Of a stretch of DNA of 64,000 nucleotides, positions 765 to 62,642 are shown in pieces. Made by a program: the position numbers and the translations under genes. This stretch comes from Cyanidioschyzon merolae (Eukaryota). A model generated the notes under the pieces. It did no database searches. It was given only the letters and a program-made list of their open reading frames with translations, and was not told where the DNA came from. The stretch lies in NCBI GenBank assembly GCA_000091205.1, contig AP006501.2; one strand, 5' to 3'. Within the stretch, counting starts at the first letter, position 1; every line of letters begins with the position of its first letter.

Positions 765-3410
765 TGCTCGCCGACCCTCCTCCCAAATGTGATTTTTTGA
801 CCACATGCGAATACTTCTTTCTGTTAACGTCTACAGTCAGTGGCGTTTGTATTTGCTATTCCGTTTTTCGATATTGTCTCTCTTTGGTATTTTCTATATC
901 GTCCGCCCTGGTAGCGCATCGCGAATTCTTGCCGTTACGTTACACTCTGTGCGTCTCGCCGATCATGGGGAACGTGTTAATGACCTCTTCTAGAGCGACT
1001 GCTCCATTGGGGCCACTTGCATTCTTAATCGAATGGTAGCAAAGTATAGTTTTGTATTCAATGGCGTTTCTAACTTCTAGTAAGAGTATTCAACTGATTT
1101 TCGCCATTCAACGCAGAGGTGTCCGACGAGTTTTTTGCTAAAAAATGTCAGACTTTTGTAATATGAGGTTGTGTGTTATGGATGGCCGTTGTTGCCGAAT
1201 ATCGGGAAAAAAGGTGACATAGTAGCTAATTCCAGAGGACTAGGAAAGAAGTGGAAGCGAAATGGGGAGGTGCTACGACGAACGCTGCACTAGTTTCGTG
1301 TCTATGTCGATATGGTTGTGGAATCCTGTCGTCTCCAACATATCAATGTTCCGTACGACTGAACGCTCCAAGATGCAATCAGAAACTGCGTCGACTCGCA
1401 CTCCAGGAATGATTGTTACTCTCCTTTAGAACTGACGCATTTGGTGAGCGAGCTCCATCGCGACGTAACGCACATCGCAAAATTGATCTTTCCGGAACAC
1501 TTTTTCAAAACAGAGTTTCATCTACTATCTGAATGCTTGCAATGGGGGCGCATCGCGGGGAAACTAGCGGGCGGATGCCTACGTCAAAATTTACGACAAA
1601 TACCGCATCAACGGTGCTGGACACAGGAGTGACGCAGATATTTACGAATACAGGGCAATTAGGTGCCTCATGAATGTGAGGAACCATAGGATCCTAATCC
1701 TCGATTGTATCATGATACGCGTTGTCATTGTGCTGTACCCGGGCCTGTTTTGCGAAGGGATGCTGGCAATCATCGATGGTATGAAGAACGATCGCCAGCA
1801 TGAACAGGAGATCATATTTGTCGACAAGAGAACATCACACAGGTGAAAAAATAGGTATTCTGTTATCCACGCAAGTATTCAAAAGCATCGTTCGGTCTCG
1901 GGACTTGCCAACCCAAGAGAAAAACCTGTCATGTATGGAAAATATGAAGAGAGATGTTCCTTCCTCATCTTGCCCTACTTCATGGTTTTTGGATCGAGAT
2001 CTCGAACGCAGGGCCGAAATGGAGCTGAGTATGGATACAATGGAGTATTGGAGAGTTGGCACTGAAGAACTCCTCCAGTTGCGCTTTTTTCGACCGGTTA
2101 TGCGAATTCCTGTCACATGTTTTGATTTTTGACTTTAGAGTTCTTTTCGCCTTCATGGAAGAGGTTTATCCAGTGCCCGATGGAAGCGACAGAGACGTAA
2201 CCGGCGAAGACCGGGATACCTACTAGATGCGGAAGTTCGAGTTCAAGCGTCCGAAACCGGCCAGTAAAAGGTATTCACCGGGGCCATGGATAACGATCGG
2301 GTATACATATATGTACACTTTCAGCGGTAGCAGGCATTTGTCCCATCCCGTCTTCTTTACCGCCCTCGCCGAAGCACGGAAACAGGAAGGCCGGCCATGG
2401 GATATATAATCCCCACGAGGACGACCTCGTCGTCGGCCTCAAATCCTGGAATACTGATTTTATAACCATCGTTGTTACAAGCGTTCGGAATATTTTACTG
2501 AATGTAGCTTACGTCGGAATGACAGGCGTCTTTTGAGGTTCTAGAGATCGACGTTCTACCCAGAAGCGGGAATCGTGAATACGAGGAAGAAAATTGAGAC
2601 TTGGGATGCAAAAGTGGAAGAGCATCTCGAAGTTGTGAGCGAGGTGAAGAGCCGAGGAGCGGATTTTCAGGCTTTTCAAGATTTCATGGATGTTCGTTTT
2701 GCTCATTGGGATGCGCTGTGGAAGGAGTATACAAAGCCCCGGTGGGCTTTTCTACGTGCGAATCTATACTGTCGGAAGCAGCATGCATTCGCGGACTTTT
2801 TCAATGAGTTGAGCTCCTTGAAGGAGAATGAAAGTCTGAGGCTCGTAGTAGCATATTGAGCATGGAGCTGGGCGTCGAGAAAGGGGACTACGCGTGCCCC
2901 AACGACAAGGACATTCAAAAAGTGTGCACGGCGTCTCGTTACGGTAACTGTAGATGAATTTGGAGCTTCGTATACACACCACGAGCTGTGATGTACACTC
3001 CACAGGGGCGAGATGGAAAAGTGCCAACGGAACCCTGAGGAAATAGCAAAGTACGGACCGCTGACGGAAGAGCAAATGGAAATGAGGGCAAAAGTTCGTG
3101 GACTCCTTGCATTAGTAGGTACAACGAACGATGGCGAGAAACGGATGGAGTTAATGAACCGAGACTTTAACGCCGCTATCAGTATCAGTAGATGTGCGGT
3201 GCTGGAGAAGAGACTTGCAAAGTAGACAAGAGACAACTTTGTTGGACAACCTCACAAAGCCGAACTATATGAGAGAAAGTTGGAAGCCGTAGTGGGTGGC
3301 CGGTCGAAAACGGCGGGGAGGCGTCTGCACATCAGCTGGAGACGTTATGTCTCGGGCGCCGGTGGCCACTACTGTACACGACCGGCGTTGTTCGACTTAG
3401 AAAGGCGTTT
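765..3410 (+). mobile_element. Fanzor/TnpB-like element copy 1. Heavily degraded, with an internal deletion that removes the RuvC-I segment; the left boundary is approximate.
   Basis: Frames at 1441-2130 are homologous to the N-terminal and middle region of the other copies (compare LVKEMRDDVTGIKTV / FFGKTFIRHLMLG). ORFs 2575..2859 and 3013..3225 carry HWDALWKEYTKPRWA, VDEF..SYTHHEL and MNRDFNAAISI. The conserved 3' tail ends GAAAGGCGTT at ~3401-3410. Confidence 0.6.
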
Positions 3411-3520
3411 CGCCGCGTAAGCTTCGCGAACCAGATCATCAGGAAACTTCAGGGCGCCGCGCTTAACTCGAAGTGCGCCGTACCTTCGGACTTGCTCGGA
3501 ACATCCGATGCGGATGAAGC

Positions 3521-5455: not shown

Positions 5456-6070
5456 GATTACCTCGGTTGCGCTTCAAGGCGCCTCAGCGTCTATCGTACC
5501 AAGGACTGCAACGGAAACCGGGAGCAATGAAGGAATAAATTCCGTTGAGCGATCAACTTGCGACATAGATGTACAGAACGTACAGGAGCAATCTGGGTGT
5601 CGGACACGTCTCCTTCATCGAGCGGGGAGGCGTCTCGCGCAGTGCACGCATCGCTCTCGGTGAGCGTATACCTGGGAAATCAGGCAGTCAACTGACACGA
5701 TGCGTATGCCGTTGAAGCGAAACGCGATCCTGATCAGTAGGGTGTTGTTCAACCGGAAAAAGTTGGATTTCAATTCAGGTCGTAGCCAAGAACATTTTTT
5801 CACTTCGTATTTGTTTCAACCTTCAAACAAGTCTAGACAAGTGGTTTTTCGCAGTATATGACAGAAGCGTTCAAAGAGCGTTGTTTTTTTAAAAAAACCT
5901 AAAAAAGGAAAGCTTTGAGAAAGCAAGTTGACGATCCTGGAGGCCCAGGGTCGCCGGCCGCTAGAGACAAACAAAAAGCAGTGCCGAGTCCAGAAGAAAA
6001 GGAAGAGAAGAAGAACCGAAAGCGGGATGCCCTACGTCGGAGGCGGCAAGAAACATGACTGTAGAACGAG

Positions 6071-8310
6071 ATGGAGGTGAAAACCTTTCTTCTTGGACAT
6101 ATCAAGGATCCCTACAAGGAAAAGTTGCGAGAAACTATCGAAAAACGTGTCGACTCGTACTCCTTGAGGATTATGAAGGTTTCTTCATAACTATTCCATT
6201 TGGTGAAGGAGATGTGTCGCGACGTAACCTAGATGGAAATGGTGGCATTCCGGACAAGTTTTTCGATAAGACCTTTATTCGTCACTTGATGCTTGGCACA
6301 GAGAAAGCGCGGAAGGAAAATGAGCGGGTGTATGCGCTCCACGAAAAACATCCCTTTTACAGCTTCAAGGGTACTCGGTACAAGGGTGACCGGGATGTTT
6401 ACGACTATGGGGCGATGAAGTACCTCACGAACCTGAAGAACCATTTGACAGAGAACCTCGAACGTTCCATGATACGCGCCGTGATTGCACTCTACCCGGG
6501 CCTGTCTCGCCAAGGAAAATGGGCGATTATCATAGGCATCACCAAAGATCGCAAGCATGAAGATGAGATCGAACTCGTCGACAAGAAGACATCACGTAAG
6601 AGAAAGAATGAAGCTTCTGTCATCCGTGCGGCCATACAAGTGTACCGTGCAGTCTTGGGGTTGGCAAATCCGACAGACAAGATATCAGAGTTGAAAAAAG
6701 ATAAGGAATGATACTATCGCCTCATCCTGCGCTATTTTGTGTTTCTGGACCGAGAACTCAAACGCAAGGCAGAGGCGAGGCTGAGTGGGGAAAAAATGAA
6801 GAGTGGGAGAGACGGAAGCCTTTCCTAATGGGTAAGCGCTTCGACGTGGTTCCAATGTGCAAGATCAAGTCATATTTGTGACTATTGACTCCGGCGTCCT
6901 TCACGCCATCATGAAGGAGATCAGTCCGGATTTCAGTGTCAGCGAGGAGGAGTTCTCCGGTGAAAACCGGGAGACGTACTGGAAGAATATCTTCGGTTTC
7001 AAACGCTTGCGAGTGAGCAAGGAAACGTTGTTCACCGGAATGATTGATACCGATGGAGTAGCCTAGTGTGTACACTATCGGCGGTTCAAGAAAGATCGTC
7101 CTGGTCCGCCGTCGGCTGTGCCCGTGACGAAGGATAAAGAAAAGAATGAGGCGGATCCTGCGACGCTGGTGGTGGAGGAGAACGAACTTATTTTTGACGC
7201 GGCGAAGGATGAAGAAAAGAATGAGGCGGATCCTGCGACGCAGGCGGTGGAGGAGAACGAACTTATTTTTGACGCGGCGAAGGATGAAGAAAAGAATGAG
7301 GCGGATCCTGTGACGCAGGAGGTGGAGGAGAACGACCTTATTTTTGACGCGGCGAAGGATGAAGAAAAGAATGAGGCGGATCCTGTGACGCAGGAGGTGG
7401 AGGAGAACGACCTTGTCGTTGACGTGGCGAAGAATGAAGGAAATACGGAGGCGGATCTTACAATGCAGAAAGTGCAGGAGAACGACTTTGTCGTTGGTGT
7501 GGACCCTGGAAATACGAATATCATAACCATCGCAGCACCCAAGCGCGCGGAAGATGGTACTGACGGCAACTTACGTCAGAAAGACATGCGTCTTTCGAGG
7601 TTCTCAAGAGCTAGATATTACCGAGAATCCGGTGTAATGAATGCAAGGAAGAAAACCGAGAAATGGAATTCAGGAATGAAAGATCTCCCGGAACATTTGA
7701 GCGGGGTGACGAGCCGAGGAGCCGACTTTGAAGCTTTTCGTAAATTCGTGGAAGTTCGCATGGCGCATTGGGATGTGCTGTGGGAGGAGTATACCATGCC
7801 CCGGTGGGCTCGTTTGCGTGTGAAACTGTATTGTGGGAAGCAGCGGGCGTTCGCCAACTTTTTCAATCAGTTGAGCGCCCTCAAGGAGAATGAAAATCAG
7901 AAGCTTGTAGTAGCGTATGGGGCAGGCCACTGGAAGACCCAAAAAGGAACTACGCCAGCTCCAACGACAAGAACGTACAAGGAGTGCGCACAACGTTTCG
8001 TTGCGATACCTGTAGACGAGTTCCGAACATCCTATACACACCATGAACTGGGATGTACACTTCAGCGAGTCGAGATGAAAAAGTGCCGGCGGATCCCTGA
8101 GGAAATCGCCAAGTACGGACCGCTAACAGAAGAGCAAATGGAAAGGAGCGCGAAAGTTCGCGGACTCCTTGCGTAAGTAAGTACAACCAGTGGTGGGAAG
8201 GAACGTATGGAATTCGTGAACCGAGACTTTAATGCCGCTATCAATATCCGAAAATGTGCGGTGCTGGAGGAAAGACCTCCAGAGAAGACAAAAGGCAACT
8301 TTGTTGGATA
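6071..8310 (+). pseudogene. Fanzor1-like (TnpB-family, RuvC) nuclease pseudogene with frameshifts and a nonsense codon
   Basis: Starts MEVKTFLLGHIKDP (compare MVVKTCLLAHIKDP in copy 4 and MAVKACLLQHTKDP in copy 3). Frame changes near 6200, 6711 and 7066, and a stop at 8177. Ends after CAVLEERPPEKTKGNFVG*. Confidence 0.65.
7130..7504 (+). repeat. In-frame tandem repeat, 5 units of 75 bp (25 aa, acidic: [25 protein letters not shown]), inside copy 2 immediately upstream of RuvC-I
   Basis: The units are visible directly in the translation of 7118..8176. Copies 3 and 4 have a single unit at the same position. Confidence 0.85.
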
Positions 8311-8579
8311 GCCTCTAAAAGTCGAACTATATGAGAAAAAGTTGGAAGCAGTAGTGGGTGGCCGGTCGAAAAAGGCGGGGAGGCGCCTGCGCGTCAGTTG
8401 GTGACGATTTGTCTCAGGCGCGGTTTTCCCGCCACTACTGTACATGGCCGACGTTGTTCGACTTTCGAAAGGCGTTGATCGCGCGCGAATTTCGCGCTCC
8501 ACCTCTGTTCTTTGGCGCTCTCGCAGACCTGCGTGTGAAGTAGTTTCTGGATTCTCGACGCAAGTTTCGATCTCATAGT

Positions 8580-10091
8580 ATGAACCACCGTACGCCTCTT
8601 TCGGCTCGAGGTGAAGCACGGGCTGCCTATGCAGCGTTTGTACCCGCTACTGGAACAGTGTGGTCAGCGTCGAGACACCGGTCACTTGGCCGGAGCTATT
8701 TCACGGCGTCGCGTCCCGGAACGCTCCAACCACACTGCAGCAGTCGCGGAAAGAGACACAACGTAGACTGGCTGCGCAGTGCCATGAGGGTGCAAGCTAA
8801 TGGAGCGTCGTACCCGGGACGAGGCAACGACCGCCAACTGTCTTCGTTGCCGTTATCCAGCGACAGTTCGGCCCCGCCGTGTCTGATTAAAGTTATCGGC
8901 GTCGGTGGTGGTGGCGGCAACGCAGTGAACCGTATGGCAGATACAGGTATTTCGGGTGTGGAGTTCTGGGCGATCAACACTGACGTGCAGGCGCTGAAGC
9001 GCTCGGCGGCACACCATACGCTGAGCATCGGGAATAAGCTGACCCGTGGTCTCGGAGCTGGCGGCAATCCCGAAGTGGGTCGCAAAGCCGCCGAGGAATC
9101 GTGCGACCAAATTGCAGAAGCCGTCCGTGGCGCCGACCTGGTGTTTGTGACTGCCGGAATGGGCGGCGGCACTGGTTCCGGAGCCGCTCCAGTAGTTGCA
9201 GAGGCTGCCCGCGAGCAAGGCTGCCTAACCGTGGGCGTTGTCACCAAGCCATTCGCGTTTGAAGGCCGGAAACGCATGAATCAGGCGCTGGAGGCTATCG
9301 AGGCCTTGCGCGAGAGCGTGGACACGCTGATTGTCGTGAGCAACGACAAGCTGCTTCAGATAGTCCCTGAGAACACACCATTGCAGGACGCATTTCGAGT
9401 TGCAGATGACATCCTGCGGCAGGGTGTTGTGGGCATCAGCGATATTATCATCCGCCCTGGTCTCATTAACGTAGACTTTGCCGACGTCCGAAGTGTCATG
9501 GCACATGCGGGATCGGCCTTAATGGGCATCGGCACCGGCAGTGGCAAGTCCCGGGCCCATGACGCCGCCGTGGCAGCGATTTCCTCACCGCTGCTGGATT
9601 TCCCTATCGAGCGTGCCAAAGGTATTGTTTTCAACGTCACCGGTGGAGAAGACATGACCCTGCACGAAATCAACCAGGCCGCTGAGGTAATCTACGAAGC
9701 AGTCGACCCCAACGCGAATATCATCTTCGGTGCCCTTATTGATCAGCAAATGGAAAGCGAGATATCCATAACGGTGGTTGCCACAGGCTTCCCTCAGCCT
9801 AACGAGAGCGCCAACAGTGGCGGCTCCTCATCTACATTGAATGCTACGGCAAATGAGTTTTACCAGGCTGGTGCGGCACCGTCGTCACCAAAGCTTGGGG
9901 GAACGAGCCGCCGCGGCGGCATTGCTGCGGATACCGCCACTCACTTTGGGCGTGATGCGGGCGCTCGGCGCCCAGCTCCGGGCCCTCAAGTGCCGCCTCC
10001 CAATCGTCAGGTCACACCTCCGCCACCACAGCCGGGACCGTCGCGCACCATAGGGAACATTCCGGATTTTCTGCGTCGATTCCAAAAGTAA
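8580..10091 (+). CDS. ftsZ: FtsZ, organelle-type (probably mitochondrial) division GTPase, with an N-terminal presequence-like extension
   Basis: Tubulin/FtsZ GTP-binding signature GGGTGSG ([14 protein letters not shown]), [15 protein letters not shown], and the C-terminal conserved peptide IPDFLRRF. About 110 aa of Ser/Arg-rich N-terminal extension precede the GTPase core. Confidence 0.85.
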
Positions 10092-35761: not shown

Positions 35762-35845
35762 AGACAGTGACCGGAAAGCTGCACCGAAAACGCCGTTGTG
35801 CTCTTCTCGAGCCTGTGTTCCGAGACCTGCACGCCGCCTCCAACA

Positions 35846-38553
35846 AACGCCGTTCTAAAGAAAAGGCTGCTGTCACCAGTGGTACAGCAGTGGCGCGCCA
35901 CGCGCCCCCCAGACAAAACGTCTCGAGCAGATGCGCAGATGCCCTTCAGATTTCTTGAACCGGCCACCCAATACTGCTTCCAACTTCTTTTCATATAGTT
36001 CAACTTTGAGAGGTTGTCCAAGAAAATTTTCTCTTGACAGCTGTGGAGGTCGTTTCTCCAGCAGCGCACATTTCCTTATATTGATTGCGGCGTTAAAGTC
36101 ACGATTCACAAACTCCATATGTTTCTTGCCATTGGTAGTTGGACTCACTAGTGCAAGCAATCCACGAACTTTCGCCCTCCTTTTCATTTGCTCTTCCGTC
36201 AGCGGTCCGTACTTTTTTACATCCTCAGGGCTTCGCTGATATTTTTCCATCTCGACCGTCTGAAGTGTGCACCCCAGTTCATGGTGTGTATAGGACGTTC
36301 GGAACTCATCTGCAGGTATCGTAGCGAAGCTCCGTGCGCACTTCTTGTACGTTCTTGTTGTTGGAGCTGGCGTAGTTCCTTTTTTGGGTCCTCCATCGCC
36401 CTGCTCCGTATGCTACTACGAGCCTTTGACTTTCATCCTCCTTCAAGGCGCTCAACTGACTGAAAAAGTTGGCGACTGCAAGCCGCTTCCCACAATACAG
36501 GTTCATAAGCAGACGGGCCCATCGAGGCTTTGTATACTCCTCCCACAGCGCATCCCAATGAGCAACGCGAACTTCCATAAACTCCCGAAAAGCGTTAGAG
36601 TCCGCTCCTCGGGTCGTCACCTCGCTCAAAGCCTCCAGGTGCTCTTTCATTCCTGAATTCCATGTAATGATTTTCTTCCTTGCATTCATTACGCCGGATC
36701 CTCGGTAGTATCTCGCTCTCGAGAACCTCAACAGACGCATGTCTTTCTGACGTGAGTTGCCGTCAGTACCATCTTCCGCGCGCTTGGGAGCAGCGATGGT
36801 TACGATATTCGTAACCCCAGGGTCCGCGCCAACGACAAAGTCGTTATCCTGCACTTTCTGTGTGGCACAATCTGCCTCCTTCTCATCTTCATGCTTCGTC
36901 ACGGACACTATCGAAGACGGAACTGGACGATCCGCCTTCAAGCGCCGATAGTGAACACACATGGCTACTCCATCGGTTTCGATCACCCCTGTGAATACCT
37001 TTTGTTTGCTCACTTTCAGACTTGTGAAATCGAAGATATTCTTCCAGTACGTGTCCCGGTTTTCACCGGTACTCTCCTTCCTGCTGACATTAAACTCGGG
37101 GCTGAACTCCTTCATGATGCCGTAAAGGATTCTGGAATCGATAGTCACAAAATGTGACTCGATGTTGGACAACGGAACGACGTTGAAGCGCTTACCCAGA
37201 AGCGCAGCCTTTCGTCTCCCCCACTCTTCATTTTTTCCTCACTCAGCTTCATCTCTGCCTTGCGTTCGAGCTCACGGTCCAGAAACACAAAGTAACGCAG
37301 GACGTGGCGGTAGTATCTTTCGTTATCTTTTTTCAACTCTGATATGTTTGCTGCTCGGTTCGCCAACCCCAGTACCGCACGATGCTCTTGTATAGCCGCT
37401 CGGATGACGGAATCCTCATTCATGCTCCTGAGTGATTTCTTCTCGTCGATGAATTCAATCTCATCTTCATGCTTGCGATCGTTCGTGTTGCCATTGATAA
37501 TCGCCCATATCCCCTGGCGAATGAGACCGGGTAGAGTGCAAAGATGGAGCGTATCATGAAGTTCTTGAGGTTCATTGTTAAATGGTTCTTTAGACTGGTG
37601 AGGTAGTTCATCGCTCCGTAGGTGTAAATATTCGAATCCCCCCCTGTATCGAGTACCGTCGAAGCGGAACTCGGCGTAAATTTTGTGGAGGGCATGAACT
37701 CGCTCATTTCACCTAGACGTTTCACCGGTGCCAAGCATCCGGTGATGAAAAACGGTTTTGTTGAGAAAATCTTCCAGAATATGGACTGTTTTGATGTCCG
37801 TAACGTCATGATACCATTTTCTTAGGAAATCCACCATTCCTTGAGAAGCGTCACGAACACCGCTGGAGTTCGGCTCGACACGGTTCCAGATTGCCTCTCG
37901 AACGTTTTCCCTGTACGGATCCTTGGTATGTTGAAGAAGACAGGCTTTCACCGCCATCTCGTCGTACCGTCATCTTTTGCGTAGCCTTTGACGTAGGGCC
38001 TCCCGCTTTTACTTCTTCTTCTTATCCTGTTCCTTTGCACTTGGCACTGTTCTTCATTTTTTCGGGCTGCCGGCGACATTGGCGCCCAGGATCCTCCACT
38101 TCCCCTCCCGTAACTTTCCTTTTTCAATATAAAAAACCGAAACAACTTTGGATGGTACAGCTATTACGCATAAAAAAGCACTTGAATACATTAGTGTGAA
38201 GGTTGAAACACGATTGAGGACAAACAATGGGCTTTTCTACGACTTGAAATCGTTAAAATTTGTACGATAGAGCTACATGCTTCATTTTTCCGATGGAAAA
38301 ACACTTACATTGACAATGGATCCCAGATTGTGCTATAAATGGGTATCGGATTTGGCGAAAGCATCCATCATGCTGCATTCTAACTCCAGATTCCATTACG
38401 TATACTTCCTTTCAGATGTACTACTCGTCTCGTGCTTCCTGTCATTCGCCGGGTGCATGCGTTGATGCACCCGCCTTAGCGTCTAATCCGCTGATGCCGA
38501 TGCATAACAGAGACAGGACAGCGTTGCCGTACTACTGAGGGCGTCGGATCGAG
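35846..38553 (-). mobile_element. Fanzor/TnpB-like element copy 3 (pseudogene with frameshifts), head-to-head with copy 4
   Basis: ORFs 37709..37957, 37420..37809, 37145..37423, 36306..37172 ([16 protein letters not shown]; HWDALWEEYTKPRWARL) and 35873..36250 (MEKYQRSPEDVKKYGPLTEEQ...FVNRDFNAAINIRKCALLE). The left end (reverse complement) at 38553 is homologous to the solo left-end repeats (cctcgatccgacgccctcagtagtacggcaacgc). The right-end motif (reverse complement) ttagaacggcgttt lies at ~35846-35860. Confidence 0.7.
35873..37957 (-). pseudogene. Fanzor1-like RuvC nuclease pseudogene (copy 3)
   Basis: Colinear with copies 2 and 4. At least 3 frameshifts. Confidence 0.6.
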
Positions 38554-38682: not shown

Positions 38683-41476
38683 CAGATGCAGTTTAACTGC
38701 CGCTAGTACCAGAATAAACAGTGCTGCAGACGAATTGCTCAGATTTCTATGCAGCACCCGCCACTGGGTGGCGAGCACGAAGCACGTGCCTGGGGTACTC
38801 GTCTGGCTCGCGGGTTTTTCCGTCGAGAAATTCAACTTTCGACAAAACGGGAACCGTGTTTCCTTTTTATCGTTTATCGTGCAGGGAAGATAAATTGGTA
38901 TATCGTTGCTAGTTAATGGTTAGTCTCTGTTCTTTGCTCTGTATGCTGCGGTCGGTTAGCGCGCCGGGGAGATCAGGTCGTACGAGACAAGACGCACGTG
39001 TCGCCGTTGAAAGGAAACGCGAAATTGTGAAAATCCGTTTTCTTATTGTTCTACCGTACAAGTTGTATTTGCGTTAAAGTCGTAACAAAGTAAAGTTGTT
39101 TCATGCAATTGTGTTTCAAACCTCAAGTAAGTGTATACAAATGATGTTTGGCAATTCAGATCAGAAGCGTCGAAAGAACCTTCTTCTTCTTCAAAAATAA
39201 AAAAGGTTATGGAAAAGAAACTGGAGGATCCTGGACATCTGGTGTCGTCGACTGCCGGAGACTGACGAAAAACATGGCGGAGCTAAAAGGAACATGAGAA
39301 GACGATGGAGCAAAAGAGGAAGGCCCGAGGTCAGAAGCTGAACGAACCACGACAGTACGACAAGATGGTGGTGAAAACCTGTCTTCTCGCACATATCAAG
39401 GATCCGTCCCGGCGAAGGCTGCGAGAGGCCATCAGAAACCGTATCGAGTCATACTCCATGAGTGTTATGATGGCTTCTGCAGGTATAATGCATTTGGTGA
39501 AGGAGATGCGCGACGACGTAACGGGCATCAAAACAGTCGAGGTTCTGGAAGAATTTTTCGGCAAAACCTTTATTCGTCACCTGATGCTTGGTACAGGGGA
39601 AACGTCGAGGAGAAATGAGCGGGTGCATGCCCTCTGCCAAAAATACTCCTTCTACAGCTCCAACGGTACTCGAGACAGGGGTGACTCGCATATTTACACC
39701 GTCGGGTTATGAAGCACCTCACGAACCTGAAGAACTATTTGACCATGAGCCTGGAACGTTTCATGATACGCGCCGTCTGTACGCGCTACCCGGGCCCCTC
39801 TCGCGAAGGGATATGGACCATCATCGACGGCATCACAAACGATAGTAAGAATGAGCAGGAGATCGAATTTGTTCACGGGAAGACATCACGCAGGAGAGCA
39901 AATGAGGATTCTGGAATCCGTGCAGCTATTAAAGAGCATCGTGTGGTCTTGGGGCTGGCGAGTCCAGCAGAAAAGATATCCGAGTTGAAAAAAGATTCGG
40001 AAAGATACGATCGCCTCATCTTGCGCTATACCATATTCCTGAACCGACAACTGAAATGCAAGACCGATATGGAGCAGGGTGTTGAAGCAAATGCAGTGTC
40101 GGAGAAACGGAAAGCTGCGCTTCTGGAGAAGCGCGTCAACGTCGTTCCGTTGTGCAACATCAAGTCACATTTTGTGAGTATCGACTCCGAAATCCCTTAC
40201 GGCATCATTACGGAGATCTGTCCAGTGTTCGATGTAAGCAACAAGCAGTTCACCGATGAAAACCAGGAGACGTACTGGAAGAAGAATATCTTCGATTCCA
40301 AACGTCTCAGAACGAGCAAGAAAAAGGAATTCACTGGGATGATCGAAAGTGATGCGATAGCCATGCGTGTACATTATCGGCGCTTGAAGGCGGATCGTCC
40401 AGTTCTGTCTTCGTTGCCGTCGCTGGCAAAGCGTGAAGAAAACAAAGAGGCTAGCCCAACGACGCAGGAGGTGCATGAGAACCACTTTGTCGTTGGCGCG
40501 GGCCCTGGGAACACGAATATCAGGACCATCACAACACGCAATTGCGGGGATGATGGCATCGACGACAACCTACGTCAAAAAACACATGCGTGTTTTAAAG
40601 CTTTCAAGAACGAGATATTACCGAGAATTCGGTGTGATGAATGCAAAGAAGAAAAGTGGGGCGTGGAACGCAGGATTGAAAGAGCACCTGGAAGCGATCA
40701 GCCAGGTGACGGGCCGGGGAGCGGACTTTCACGCTTTTCGGGAGTTTATGGAAGTTCGTGTTGCTCATTGCGAGGCGCTGTAGGAGGAGTATACAAAGCC
40801 CCGGTGGGCTCGGTTGCGTATGAATCTACACGGTGGGAGCCAGCGTGCGTTCGCGAGTTTTTTCAATGAATTGAACGTCTTGAAGGAGAGCGACAGTCAG
40901 AGGCTCGTACTAGCGTATGGAGCAGGGCGATGGAAGACCCGAAAAGGGTGTACACGAGCTCCAACTACAAGAACGCACAAGGAGTGTGCAAGGCGTTTCG
41001 TTACGATACCTGTAGATGAGTTACGAACGTCGTATACACACCATGAACTGGGTTGTACGCATCATAGAGTGGAGATGGAAAAGTACCAGTGAAGCCCTGA
41101 GGATGTAAAAAAGTACGGAGCGTTGACGGAGGAACAAATGGAAAGCAGGGCGAAAGCTCGTGGACTACTCGCATTACTGTGTACAAACAAAGATGGCAAG
41201 AAACGTATGGAGTTTGTGAATCGTGACTTTAACGCCGCTATCAATATAAGGAGATGTGCGGTGGTGGAAAGAAGACCTCCAGAGTGGACACGATAGAACT
41301 TTGTTGCGCAATCATTCAAACTGGAACTGTATGAGAAAAAGTTGGAGGCAGTAGTAGGTGGCCTGTCCAAAAAGGCTGGGAGGCGTCTGCACGTCAGCCG
41401 AAGACGATTTATCTAGCGCGGGTTTCTCGCCACTACTGTACACGGCCGCCGGCGACGTTCGTCTTTTAGGGCGTTC
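38683..41476 (+). mobile_element. Fanzor/TnpB-like element copy 4 (pseudogene; the RuvC-I Asp is replaced by Gly)
   Basis: Left end ccagatcgacgccc at ~38683. ORFs 39305..39712, 39709..40869 ([16 protein letters not shown]) and 40814..41092 (VDELRTSYTHHELGC), then FVNRDFNAAINIRRCAVVE. Right end cgtcttttagggcgtt at ~41465-41476. Confidence 0.7.
39365..41290 (+). pseudogene. Fanzor1-like RuvC nuclease pseudogene (copy 4)
   Basis: Starts MVVKTCLLAHIKDP. Frameshifts near 39712 and 40780. D>G at RuvC-I. Confidence 0.6.
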
Positions 41477-41763
41477 CTTGTGTCGGCGATACCACGGACC
41501 AGCAGCAGGCGACCGCGCCCATCGCCCGAAAGAAGCAACCGGTTTCGCGAGCTGGACGCAGTACGGCGCTCTGCCCTGTGCGCCTTTTGTGGCTTTCAGG
41601 TACGCGGTCTACCGCTCCGGACACTGCTCCAACAGTCTGGCCGGTCCTTGATTACGACAAGTAGCGCTGAAAGCAAGCCTTTCGTGCACGGAAACTGAAC
41701 GCGAGTCGGAGCACTGTTCGTCACACAAGTGCTGGGTTATCCGTTCTCGTCCCTATCATAGAC

Positions 41764-43427: not shown

Positions 43428-43745
43428 GCACGCCTCAAGCCGACGCCCTCTCGGGTATAGAAAAGCTGTTCTAGCTCTATGAACTATCTGCTCTAGCATT
43501 TAAGGTCCAAAGGCGGATACGGAACGGCAGGCACTAGGCACACCCGATGGGACGTATGAAACGGCCGGAATATCCGAGAAGAGGTATCGGTAATGTAACT
43601 TGGAGGTTCGGGGGTTTGATGGACACCTTACCGCCCACTGAAAAAAACCACAAAAAAAGTAAGAAACAAATGCGCTTAATCGGAGAACGCTGGCCGAAGT
43701 AAACGTGTTGTCAGTGAAAAAAATCCGAACGTGCTGCTGTGGTGG
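43428..43745 (+). repeat. Solo left-end fragment (~320 bp) of the Fanzor-like element family (repeat A)
   Basis: ~80% identical to 50483-50812. Also homologous to the left-end regions of copy 3 (reverse complement at 38553 and below), copy 4 (38683+) and copy 2 (5459+). Begins CCTCAAGCCGACGCCCT. Confidence 0.75.
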
Positions 43746-50482: not shown

Positions 50483-50812
50483 GCTACCCTCGAGCCGACG
50501 CCCTTTGTGCGGTACAGCAACGCAGCGCTAGCTCTATGAACTATCTGCTCCAGCGGTTCAGGCGCAAAGGCGGATACGGAACAGCAGGCACTAGGCACAC
50601 ACGAGAGGACGTGAGAAACGACCAGAATATCTGAGAAGAAGTATAGGTAATGTAACTCGGAGGTAGGGAATTCGGTGGATACTTCACCGCGCACTGAAAA
50701 AAAAACAGAAAAAGAAAAGAAAGGAAAAAGCGCGTAATCAGAGAACGCTGGCCTAAGTAAACGTTCTGTCAATGAAGAAAAATCGAAATCGCTGCTTGCC
50801 GGTGGGCGCTCA
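50483..50812 (+). repeat. Solo left-end fragment (~330 bp) of the Fanzor-like element family (repeat B)
   Basis: Pairs with 43428-43745. Begins CCTCGAGCCGACGCCCT. Truncated at the same internal point as repeat A. Confidence 0.75.
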
Positions 50813-61598: not shown

Positions 61599-61671
61599 TC
61601 CCTGGTCGTTATCCACGAAGCGTTCGCTCGAATGACGCACCCGGTGAATGCGAAGACAACCCTGAAAACAA

Positions 61672-62194
61672 ACCCCTTTCAAAAGAAAAACGTTGCTGCC
61701 AACGGTGTACGGTAGTGGCGACCAGCGCCTAAGCCTTGACGTCTCCAACTGACGTGTAGACGCCTCGCCGTCTTTCTGGACCGGCCGCCTACAACTGGTT
61801 TCAATTGTTTCTCATATAGTTCCACTTTGAGAGGGTGTCCCACAAAGTTCACTCTTGTCCACTTTGGAGGCTTTTTCTCCATCATCGCACATCTCCCTAC
61901 ATTGATTGCTGCGTGAGAGTCTCGGTTCGCAAATTCCATACGTTTCTTGCCATCACTGGTAGTACTTACTAGTGCAAGCAAACCACGCACTTTCGCTCTC
62001 CTTTCCATTTGATCTTCCGTCAGCGCTCCGTACTTTTTTATATCCTCAGGGCTCCGCTGGCACTTTTCCATCTCCACTCTCTAAAGAGTACACCCCAGTT
62101 CATGGTGTGTATAGGACGTTCGGAAAGCATCTACAGGTATCGTGACGAAACGCCGTGCACACTCCTTGTGCGTTCTTGTCGTTGGAGCTGGTGT
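61672..62194 (-). mobile_element. Truncated Fanzor-like 3' half (copy 5a), inverted with respect to copy 5b
   Basis: Reads ..APTTRTHKECARRFVTIPVDAFRTSYTHHELGCTL*RVEMEKCQRSPEDIKKYGALTEDQ..FANRDSHAAINV..NFVGHPLKVELYEKQL.. on the minus strand. The tail ttttgaaaggggtt ends at ~61672, 74 bp upstream of the DPH3 ATG. Confidence 0.65.
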
Positions 62195-62615
62195 ACACTC
62201 CAGAGGGTGGAGATGGAGAAATGCCAGCGGAGCCCTGGGGATATAAAAAAGTACGGAGCGCTGACGGAAGGTCAAATGGAAAGGAGGGCGAAATTTCGTG
62301 GATTGCTTGCATTAGTAAGTACAACCAGTGATAGCAAGAAACGTATGGAGTTTGTGAACCGAGAACTTAACGCGGCAATCAAGGTAGGGAGTTGTGCGGT
62401 GATGGAGAAAAGACCTCCAGCGTTGACCAGAGAGGATTGTATGGGGCAACCTCTCAAAGTGGAACTATTTGAGAAAAAAATGAAACCAGTAGTAGCTTGG
62501 CGGCCCAGAGAGGCTGGGAGCCGTCTGCACCTCAGCTGGAGACGATTTGTCCAAGGCGCGTTCGCCGCCACGACTACACACCGCTGGCGGCAGCGGTTCT
62601 CTTTTGAAAGGCGTT
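62185..62615 (+). mobile_element. Truncated Fanzor-like 3' fragment (copy 5b)
   Basis: CTLQRVEMEKCQRSPGDIKKYGALTEGQ...FVNRELNAAIKV...PLKVELFEKKM.. The tail tcttttgaaaggcgtt ends at 62606-62615, 28 bp upstream of the ATG at 62643. Confidence 0.65.
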
Positions 62616-62642
62616 ATCGGACTAGCCTCTGATTCATCAAGG

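Follow-up and report, generated by a model that had tools for sequence, protein, structure and literature searches.

We propose that positions 8348-8476 (+ strand) of a 64,000-nucleotide stretch of Cyanidioschyzon merolae DNA (contig AP006501.2, assembly GCA_000091205.1; hereafter the window, analysed at its full length) represent the decayed gene of an omega-RNA (right-end RNA) scaffold belonging to the Fanzor1 element CMe-1A, a reading to which we assign a probability of roughly 0.55. The putative relic is 129 nt long and overlaps the last 22 codons of the ancestral open reading frame (ORF) of the element. The identity of the element, its right boundary, the position of the ancestral stop codon, the complementarity of two arms, a folding that is better than random and biased to the sense strand, and, for a sister clade, a covarying stem in the corresponding position were directly established. 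No description of an omega-RNA for CMe-1A was found in the literature. A preliminary description of this DNA, made from the letters alone, had suggested such a scaffold, and its reading is plausible and the best available given the Fanzor1 framework, the position and the sister-clade stem, although covariation was not found within the family itself and the right flank is not free.

A Fanzor1 element with a shared 3' tail

The ORF at 8580-10091 encodes exactly the plastid division protein FtsZ2-1 of C. merolae 10D, and the repeat found in the window is the Fanzor1 element CMe-1A of this organism. A 3.2-kb interspersed repeat of C. merolae, with 253 transcribed copies making up ~5% of the genome, has been reported together with a truncated ORF likened to WSV486 of the white spot syndrome virus (Nozaki et al., 2007; PMC1955436), and the Fanzor1 family CMe-1A was described as having ~150 copies, each ~80% identical to the consensus, no terminal inverted repeats (TIRs), undetermined target site duplications (TSDs) and an unknown class (Bao and Jurka, 2013; PMC3627910). 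The window carries four long copies (c1 to c4) and two 3' fragments (c5a and c5b), which are 72-81% identical to one another. The copy discussed here, c2 (5595-8476, +), is a long pseudogene with several stops, delimited by self-BLAST and copy alignment; its homology with other copies begins at ~5595, and its right end was taken from the drop in conservation. In every copy of the window the reading frame is broken.

Regarding the encoded protein, the majority consensus of the copies restores an ORF of ~680 aa with the RuvC-type motifs VVGADPG, IPVDEFRTS and NRDFNAAINI (D/E/D-type). When the family profile was compared against PDB, the sole match was the Fanzor1 of Guillardia theta (GtFz1), with an E of 0.006 over the WED/RuvC-I region. 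Moreover, P0047, an intact relative that is 43% identical to the CMe-1 consensus over 95% of the P0047 length, gave an AlphaFold model with a predicted local distance difference test (pLDDT) of 86 and a predicted template modelling score (pTM) of 0.81, which matched the SpuFz, PpFz and GtFz structures with E of 1e-15 to 1e-17 and template modelling (TM) scores of 0.55-0.69, leaving Cas12f far behind. Since the P0047 model and the GtFz1 profile match agree, the predicted membership of the CMe-1 protein in Fanzor1 is sound. Pfam and NCBIfam scans of the ORF fragments, the relatives and alignment A2 returned nothing useful, and PF26935/DUF8286, which stands in the precomputed annotation of the relatives, was not reproduced in the Pfam scan.

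For comparison across copies, 80 related loci were taken from metagenomes, out of more than 466 relatives, with L003 and L006 being the same locus as c2; window copies and metagenome loci together gave 54 non-redundant tails, and the conservation profile was built on 51 non-redundant copies. A shared 3' tail running up to the element boundary had been claimed in the preliminary description, and both claims hold. The tail is carried by six copies of the window, at 3266-3411 (c1, +), 8328-8480 (c2, +), 35841-35997 (c3, -), 41330-41478 (c4, +), 61666-61818 (c5a, -) and 62466-62618 (c5b, +). Agreement with the majority base is ~0.90 along the ORF, 0.85-0.92 at 8325-8414, 0.72 at 8415-8429, 0.93 at 8430-8444 and ~0.77 at 8445-8474, and drops to ~0.45 beyond 8476; because the agreement collapses directly past 8476, the right end of the element at this position is real. 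The sole strongly conserved non-coding block of the tail, CGCCACTACTGTACAC (8430-8445, +; 16 nt, ~0.93 agreement), holds the 3' arm of the long-range stem described below. Among the more divergent CMe-1 copies, P0034, P0042 and P0022, two tails are ordinary and one is truncated.

The overlap of the tail with the end of the ORF, also claimed previously, is real; most of the tail (~70%) is coding, and the non-coding part comprises the 60 nt of 8417-8476. The ancestral stop codon lies at 8414-8416 (+), where ~40 of the 51 copies have TAG or TAA and c2 has TCA; the frame of c2 ends prematurely at a TGA (8402-8404, +) that reads AGA in most copies. Given this in-frame TAG or TAA in most copies, the ancestral protein ended in ...LEAVVGGRSKKTGRRLHVSWRRFV*. 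Conservation at codon positions 1, 2 and 3 over 7500-8335 is 0.918, 0.938 and 0.825, respectively, and therefore the differences between copies largely mirror active masters evolving under protein selection. This periodicity is gone in the last 14 codons (0.86, 0.89 and 0.87), the clear change being a drop at positions 1 and 2.

Complementary arms, hairpins and folding of the tail

In c2, CAGTAGTGG (8349-8357) and CCACTACTG (8432-8440) form nine uninterrupted Watson-Crick pairs, thanks to G8356, a run that was matched by 5 of 300 dinucleotide shuffles. The complementarity announced in the preliminary description thus exists, but its 5' arm had been placed near 8338-8348, 13 nt away from the real arm at 8349-8361, and the enclosed segment, given as ~85 nt, is in fact 67 nt (GTAGTGGGTGG at 8351-8361 and CCGCCACTAC at 8429-8438). 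In the best family model, based on the sequence and on per-position and pair counts, this stem (P1) comprises 7 bp (8349-8355 with 8434-8440), a 1-nt bulge at 8356 and 5 bp (8357-8361 with 8429-8433). The 5' arm (8349-8361, +; CAGTAGT, bulge G8356, GGTGG) lies within the codons for AVVGG, and the 3' arm (8429-8440, +; CCGCC and ACTACTG) is non-coding. At the bulge, 29 copies have A and 19 have G, and the inner 5 bp pair GGUGG with CYGCC, including U-G and G-U pairs. The common polymorphisms of the arms, at 8429 (T in 30 copies, C in 19) and 8359 (T in 44, C in 5), keep a G-U or a G-C pair each time. The pairing, stated earlier to be visible in every full-length copy and in c5b, is not intact throughout: c3, c5a and c5b have uncompensated mismatches.

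Besides P1, which appears in most copies when sequences are folded singly, smaller hairpins were delimited in the putative scaffold. Directly after the 5' arm lies H1 (8362-8379, +; CCGGTC, SAAAAA, GRCKGG, with an internal G-G or G-U), with 81% of its cells paired and three pairs showing double changes, not above shuffles. H3 (8417-8433, +; GGCG with CGCC) has a hypervariable loop with indels, has 95% of its cells paired and competes with the inner 5 bp of P1. Indeed, the interior of P1 is ambiguous, the competing helices being H1, GAGGCGUCU with AGACGUUUC versus an AGACG-loop-CGUCU hairpin, and H3. The terminal hairpin H4 (8451-8475, +; ACGTTGTTCGA-CTT-TCGAAAGGCGT) was obtained in nearly all single-sequence folds, and at least 7 bp are formed within the last 34 nt in 51 of the 54 copies. 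It exists in two sequence variants with different registers, CGUCGUUCGA-CUU-UCGAACGGCG and AACGUUUUUC-UUUU-GAAAGGCGUU, which is suggestive of selection for a hairpin, though it is not classical covariation.

Folding statistics were clearer for the family than for the single copy. The segment 8346-8476 of c2 has a minimum free energy of -52.9 (z = -1.92), and a subfamily-consistent consensus reached z = -4.65, with -5.1 on the sense strand versus -2.4 on the antisense strand in a second run. Across the 54 copies, the mean z was -2.16 for the sense and -1.04 for the antisense strand, with the sense value lower in 42 of 54, a count that is not an independent-sample test because the copies are related. 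The strand bias fits the G-U pairs of an RNA made from the sense strand.

A covarying stem in the sister clade

The closest relatives with intact genes (P0047, P0048, P0049, P0084, P0086 and P0087, at loci L081-L090) are 40-43% identical to CMe-1 at full length. Wherever upstream genes were called, a DDE_3 (Tc1/mariner) transposase gene precedes the Fanzor1 gene, and the 3' non-coding DNA, of 190-230 nt, ends in a TIR, ...GAGTATA. When RNAalifold was applied to six distinct 3' regions of this clade, it placed a long-range CCGGYG/CRCCGG-type stem of 7 bp, with four compensatory pairs, beyond the stop codon; judged by eye, this stem encloses a hairpin whose sequence is unrelated from member to member. 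Paired cells amounted to 90.5% in this stem versus 78.9% in shuffles, and the covariation score was 0.476 versus 0.256, values reached by none of 500 shuffles in either case.

The arrangement resembles that of CMe-1A, as both have a 5' arm ending in GG (a GGYGG-like motif) that leads directly into a hairpin, and then a linker and the 3' arm, and in both the long-range stem starts at or just past the (equivalent) stop codon. In contrast to CMe-1A, the sister clade has intact ORFs, a transposase gene, a TIR and compensatory changes in the stem. We infer that the sister-clade stem and P1 are homologous. In an ungapped comparison of the protein C-termini, the sister-clade stop, which follows ...VG(R/K)xxxR*, would align with the CMe codon at 8348-8350, exactly at the start of P1, and therefore the ORF of CMe-1 seems to have been extended by ~22 codons into the putative scaffold relative to its closest intact relatives.

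Evidence against a scaffold and comparison with known omega-RNAs

Several results weigh against the scaffold reading. At the level of folding, c2 itself is only marginally better than its shuffles and scores almost the same on the antisense strand (z = -1.79); a plain majority consensus gives the tail a z of only -2.3, whereas 2 of 13 upstream coding windows reach -2.5 and -3.2. RNAalifold on the 54 tails recovered only a 3-bp core of H3, missing the long stem. The uninterrupted run of the family consensus is 7 bp, a length reached by 58 of 300 shuffles (19%). Likewise, two explicit structure models showed no covariation above shuffles on the 54-tail alignment: model pairing involved 82.4% of cells versus 81.9% in shuffles (36 of 500 shuffles; 39 of 500 for the second model), with a covariation score of 0.136 versus 0.133 (146 of 500; 141 of 500 for the second model). 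The preliminary description had named a lack of compensatory substitutions in the stem across many copies as refuting its scaffold reading, and this is formally what is seen, P1 showing 0-1 double changes in the family; the test has little power, however, because the arms barely vary and dead copies mostly differ by decay that is not compensated. A search of Rfam was negative at the gathering score over the whole window and at E <= 1 over 8280-8520.

The tail overall, with an agreement of 0.78-0.88, is not better conserved than the ORF, with the exception of 8430-8445, and third codon positions in the overlap of ORF and putative RNA are not unusually conserved, which indicates no clear extra constraint on synonymous sites there. 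Nothing can be learned from the earlier argument that conservation of the tail persists in copies with a broken protein, because the ORF is broken or truncated in every copy of the window and in all 80 metagenome loci. The flanking DNA past the right end, read as guide in the preliminary description, agrees with Fanzor/TnpB logic, but the putative guide position of CMe-1A (8477-8490, +) is a degenerate (TGN)n tract in most copies (GATCGCGCGCGAAT in c2). The first 10-14 nt past the end are (TGN)n-like in about half of the independent copies, unlike a free guide; TGNTG or GGTG occurs within 14 nt in 26 of 51 independent flanks versus 5 and 2 in control windows, A is depleted past 8476 and G recurs with period 3. 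Flanks of this kind include L002, L014, L021, L034, L035 and L050.

On the other hand, the position of the putative scaffold is the one known for these RNAs. The sequences encoding Fanzor and TnpB omega-RNAs sit at the 3' end of the nuclease gene, share its strand and reach the right end of the element (PMC10432273), as the preliminary description had said, and every characterised Fanzor1 locus has its omega-RNA there (PMC10432273; PMC11423790). The omega-RNA of GtFz1 overlaps the last 17 aa of its ORF, compared with ~22 codons in CMe-1A, and is likewise a sense-strand, multi-stem scaffold located where a Fanzor1 gene of the same protein fold family ends, extending up to the right end (PMC10432273; PMC11423790); the sequences are unrelated, and CMe-1A differs in having no inverted repeats, a (TGN)n tract as flank, only pseudogenes among the copies examined and an RNA deduced from DNA alone. 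SpuFz1 of Spizellomyces punctatus has a 75-nt scaffold, with 14-15 variable nt beyond the conserved region as guide; in both SpuFz1 and CMe-1A the 3' region leading from the nuclease gene to the right end is conserved. The SpuFz1 omega-RNA lies wholly downstream of the stop, inside a 3' inverted repeat, whereas CMe-1A lacks such a repeat and has 69 coding nt among the 129 of its putative scaffold. Considering also SfAV Fz1, with a scaffold of ~120 nt and a guide of ~20 nt, the putative 129-nt scaffold with its 22-codon overlap is, by analogy, in the range of known Fanzor omega-RNAs. A first stem of 7 bp is common to the solved Fz1 complexes, whose scaffolds vary otherwise; this length recurs in the outer part of P1 and in the sister-clade stem, an echo of these complexes and not a test. 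The reRNA of ISDra2 TnpB resembles the arrangement proposed for CMe-1A: its scaffold overlaps both the 3' part of the nuclease gene and the transposon right end, and the flank is the guide. It differs in being prokaryotic, with a Y1 transposase, defined left- and right-end hairpins and a target-adjacent motif (TAM) at the left flank. No common left flank or TAM is definable for CMe-1A because its 5' ends are heterogeneous.

On the scaffold reading, an active ancestor would have made a sense-strand transcript starting near the last 22 codons of the nuclease ORF, which would fold into P1 (7 bp, bulge, 5 bp) around small hairpins, followed by the terminal hairpin at the element end. Such a transcript would be bound by the nuclease and read ~15-20 nt beyond the end, which would serve as the guide. 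Since all copies of the window have broken ORFs, nothing here is likely to be functional today.

Element ends and alternative explanations

Upstream of ~5648 of c2, at least four unrelated modules are found among the copies (region 5560-5720; L017, L027, L030, L034, L048, L052, L072 and L073); the c2-type module begins at ~5595, and some loci share further upstream sequence, which fits the report of a 5' 635 bp common to TE-N2_CMe. Copies truncated at the 5' side retain the 3' end, as seen in c5a, c5b and L030:330-430. The last of these is a solo tail of ~100 nt that starts at the equivalent of c2 8383 and has the hairpin and a TG-rich flank, with no Fanzor coding upstream. In a more divergent copy (L054, 3994-4029; L061, 1475-1501), the flank is a genuine (TGC)6-7(TGG)3-5 microsatellite that is not equally long in the two alleles; a (TGN)n tract was looked for at the left end of L054 and not found. 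Either the true end of the element is fuzzy, or insertion favours such (TGN)n sites. An empty site upstream of FtsZ2-1 was not found in other strains, as every contig with an FtsZ2-1 variant and sufficient upstream sequence has the insertion; contigs with an FtsZ2-1 variant break inside the repeat.

These ends invite other readings of the tail. The terminal hairpin with its (TGN)n tract could be a cis-acting 3' mobilisation signal, as in stringent pairs of long and short interspersed nuclear elements (LINE/SINE), by which CMe-1A, lacking the Tc1/mariner transposase and inverted repeats of its relatives, would have spread in trans, e.g., by a C. merolae non-LTR (long terminal repeat) retrotransposon; the conserved tail would then serve that machinery and not nuclease guidance, although it would be compatible with an omega-RNA as well. 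We hold this for improbable as a replacement of the scaffold reading, albeit the strongest of its competitors. The hairpin-plus-repeat end comes into consideration as a rival or additional mobilisation tail because the flank is (TGN)n-like in so many copies and an allelic microsatellite in one, the 5' ends are heterogeneous or truncated while the 3' end is uniform and keeps its hairpin in both variants and registers, no TIRs and no detectable TSDs have been reported (PMC3627910), and class I is represented in C. merolae solely by non-LTR retrotransposons, 26 in number, of which three have kept an intact reverse transcriptase (RT) (PMC1955436). The tails of stringent LINE/SINE pairs are alike in their terminal hairpin followed by a short tandem repeat of variable length, in 5' truncation and in having no TIRs. 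Unlike them, CMe-1A has no known RT partner sharing its tail, no RT ORF was present in the 618 kb searched, TSDs were not observed, the tract is something other than poly(A), and the DNA transposons to which it is most closely related have TIRs that end in ...GAGTATA. Furthermore, a mobilisation signal leaves the long-range stem and its sister-clade parallel unexplained.

Another proposal is that the tail is only C-terminal coding sequence plus a short 3' untranslated region, whose conserved block, which contains TGTA, would be an mRNA 3'-end/polyadenylation signal or another protein-binding site, with arms that are a chance feature inherited from one master. Much of what was listed above fits it: a tail that is largely coding and not more conserved than the ORF, no covariation within the family, a 7-bp stem that is not rare among shuffles, and comparable z-scores in two coding windows. 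The consensus z of about -5 and the clear strand bias argue against it, as do the coincidence of the conserved block with the 3' arm, the frequent arm polymorphisms that keep pairing, the covarying sister-clade stem in the same place and the omega-RNAs encoded there by all characterised Fanzor1 loci (PMC10432273; PMC11423790), so that we judge it unlikely, slightly more so than a mobilisation tail. A subterminal hairpin of a rolling-circle or single-strand transposon, i.e., a Helitron 3' hairpin or an IS200/IS605 right-end hairpin for a HUH transposase, might be suspected from the 3'-end hairpin, the lack of TIRs and TSDs and the occurrence of Fanzor1 in several transposon superfamilies (Bao and Jurka, 2013; PMC3627910). 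This seems very improbable, as there is no associated HUH or Rep-helicase gene, the 5' ends are heterogeneous with no defined left-end hairpin or TC start, and the relatives are of Tc1/mariner type. Helitrons end in CTRR with a hairpin 10-12 nt upstream; a Helitron end was rejected here because the element terminates in GGCGTT, with (TGN)n coming next, and its hairpin stops only 1 nt short of the terminus. The IS605 end model was rejected on the terminal sequence.

Other features of the copies and their surroundings

The other long copies lie at ~1231-3409 (c1, +), 38248-35882 (c3, -) and 39046-41451 (c4, +), and the 3' fragments at 62195-61671 (c5a, -) and 62192-62619 (c5b, +). A small fragment at 48171-47962 (-) corresponds to c2 8181-8395 and is truncated at its 3' side, so that it has no right end. 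The fragments c5a (~525 nt) and c5b (~430 nt) are arranged head to head, inverted, with their junction at 62192-62195; it shows a TGTACA microhomology and resembles a fold-back or palindromic rearrangement.

Within c2, positions 7123-7497 comprise five tandem units of 75 nt, each encoding a 25-aa acidic repeat, directly upstream of the RuvC-I motif; the unit is single in the other copies of the window and is present two to four times in some metagenome relatives (P0001 and P0006). Long antisense ORFs cover the 3' part of the element at 8062-8619 (-), 2703-3236 (-), 35931-36239 (+) and 41062-41370 (-); sense-strand codon usage probably accounts for them. An unrelated direct repeat of 154 nt, 84% identical, is found at 43454-43607 and 50511-50664, 7 kb apart.

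Implications

The multiplication of a Fanzor element that has neither transposase nor TIRs, and that ends in a hairpin-plus-microsatellite tail, is a puzzle. One speculative answer, which we consider doubtful, is that CMe-1A changed its way of spreading: from a Tc1/mariner-borne ancestry it would have lost the transposase and the inverted repeats and reached hundreds of copies through its 3' end, the hairpin and (TGN)n microsatellite acting as a recognition tail for other machinery such as a non-LTR RT, with the scaffold or its remnant doubling as a retroposition signal; alternatively, the tract might be a fixed, microsatellite-like guide.

As for the scaffold reading, the understanding of Fanzor biology would be unchanged by it, since an omega-RNA at this place is the expectation of the field. 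For C. merolae, if the reading is true, a complete RNA-guided nuclease system would once have resided in its most abundant repeat, which makes up ~5% of a model genome that is very compact, and the consensus would allow the 129-nt scaffold, with its overlap of the last 22 codons, to be rebuilt. In this context, CMe-1A would offer a Fanzor1/omega-RNA pair derived from a thermo-acidophile and a case of a nuclease ORF that has grown into its own guide-RNA gene.

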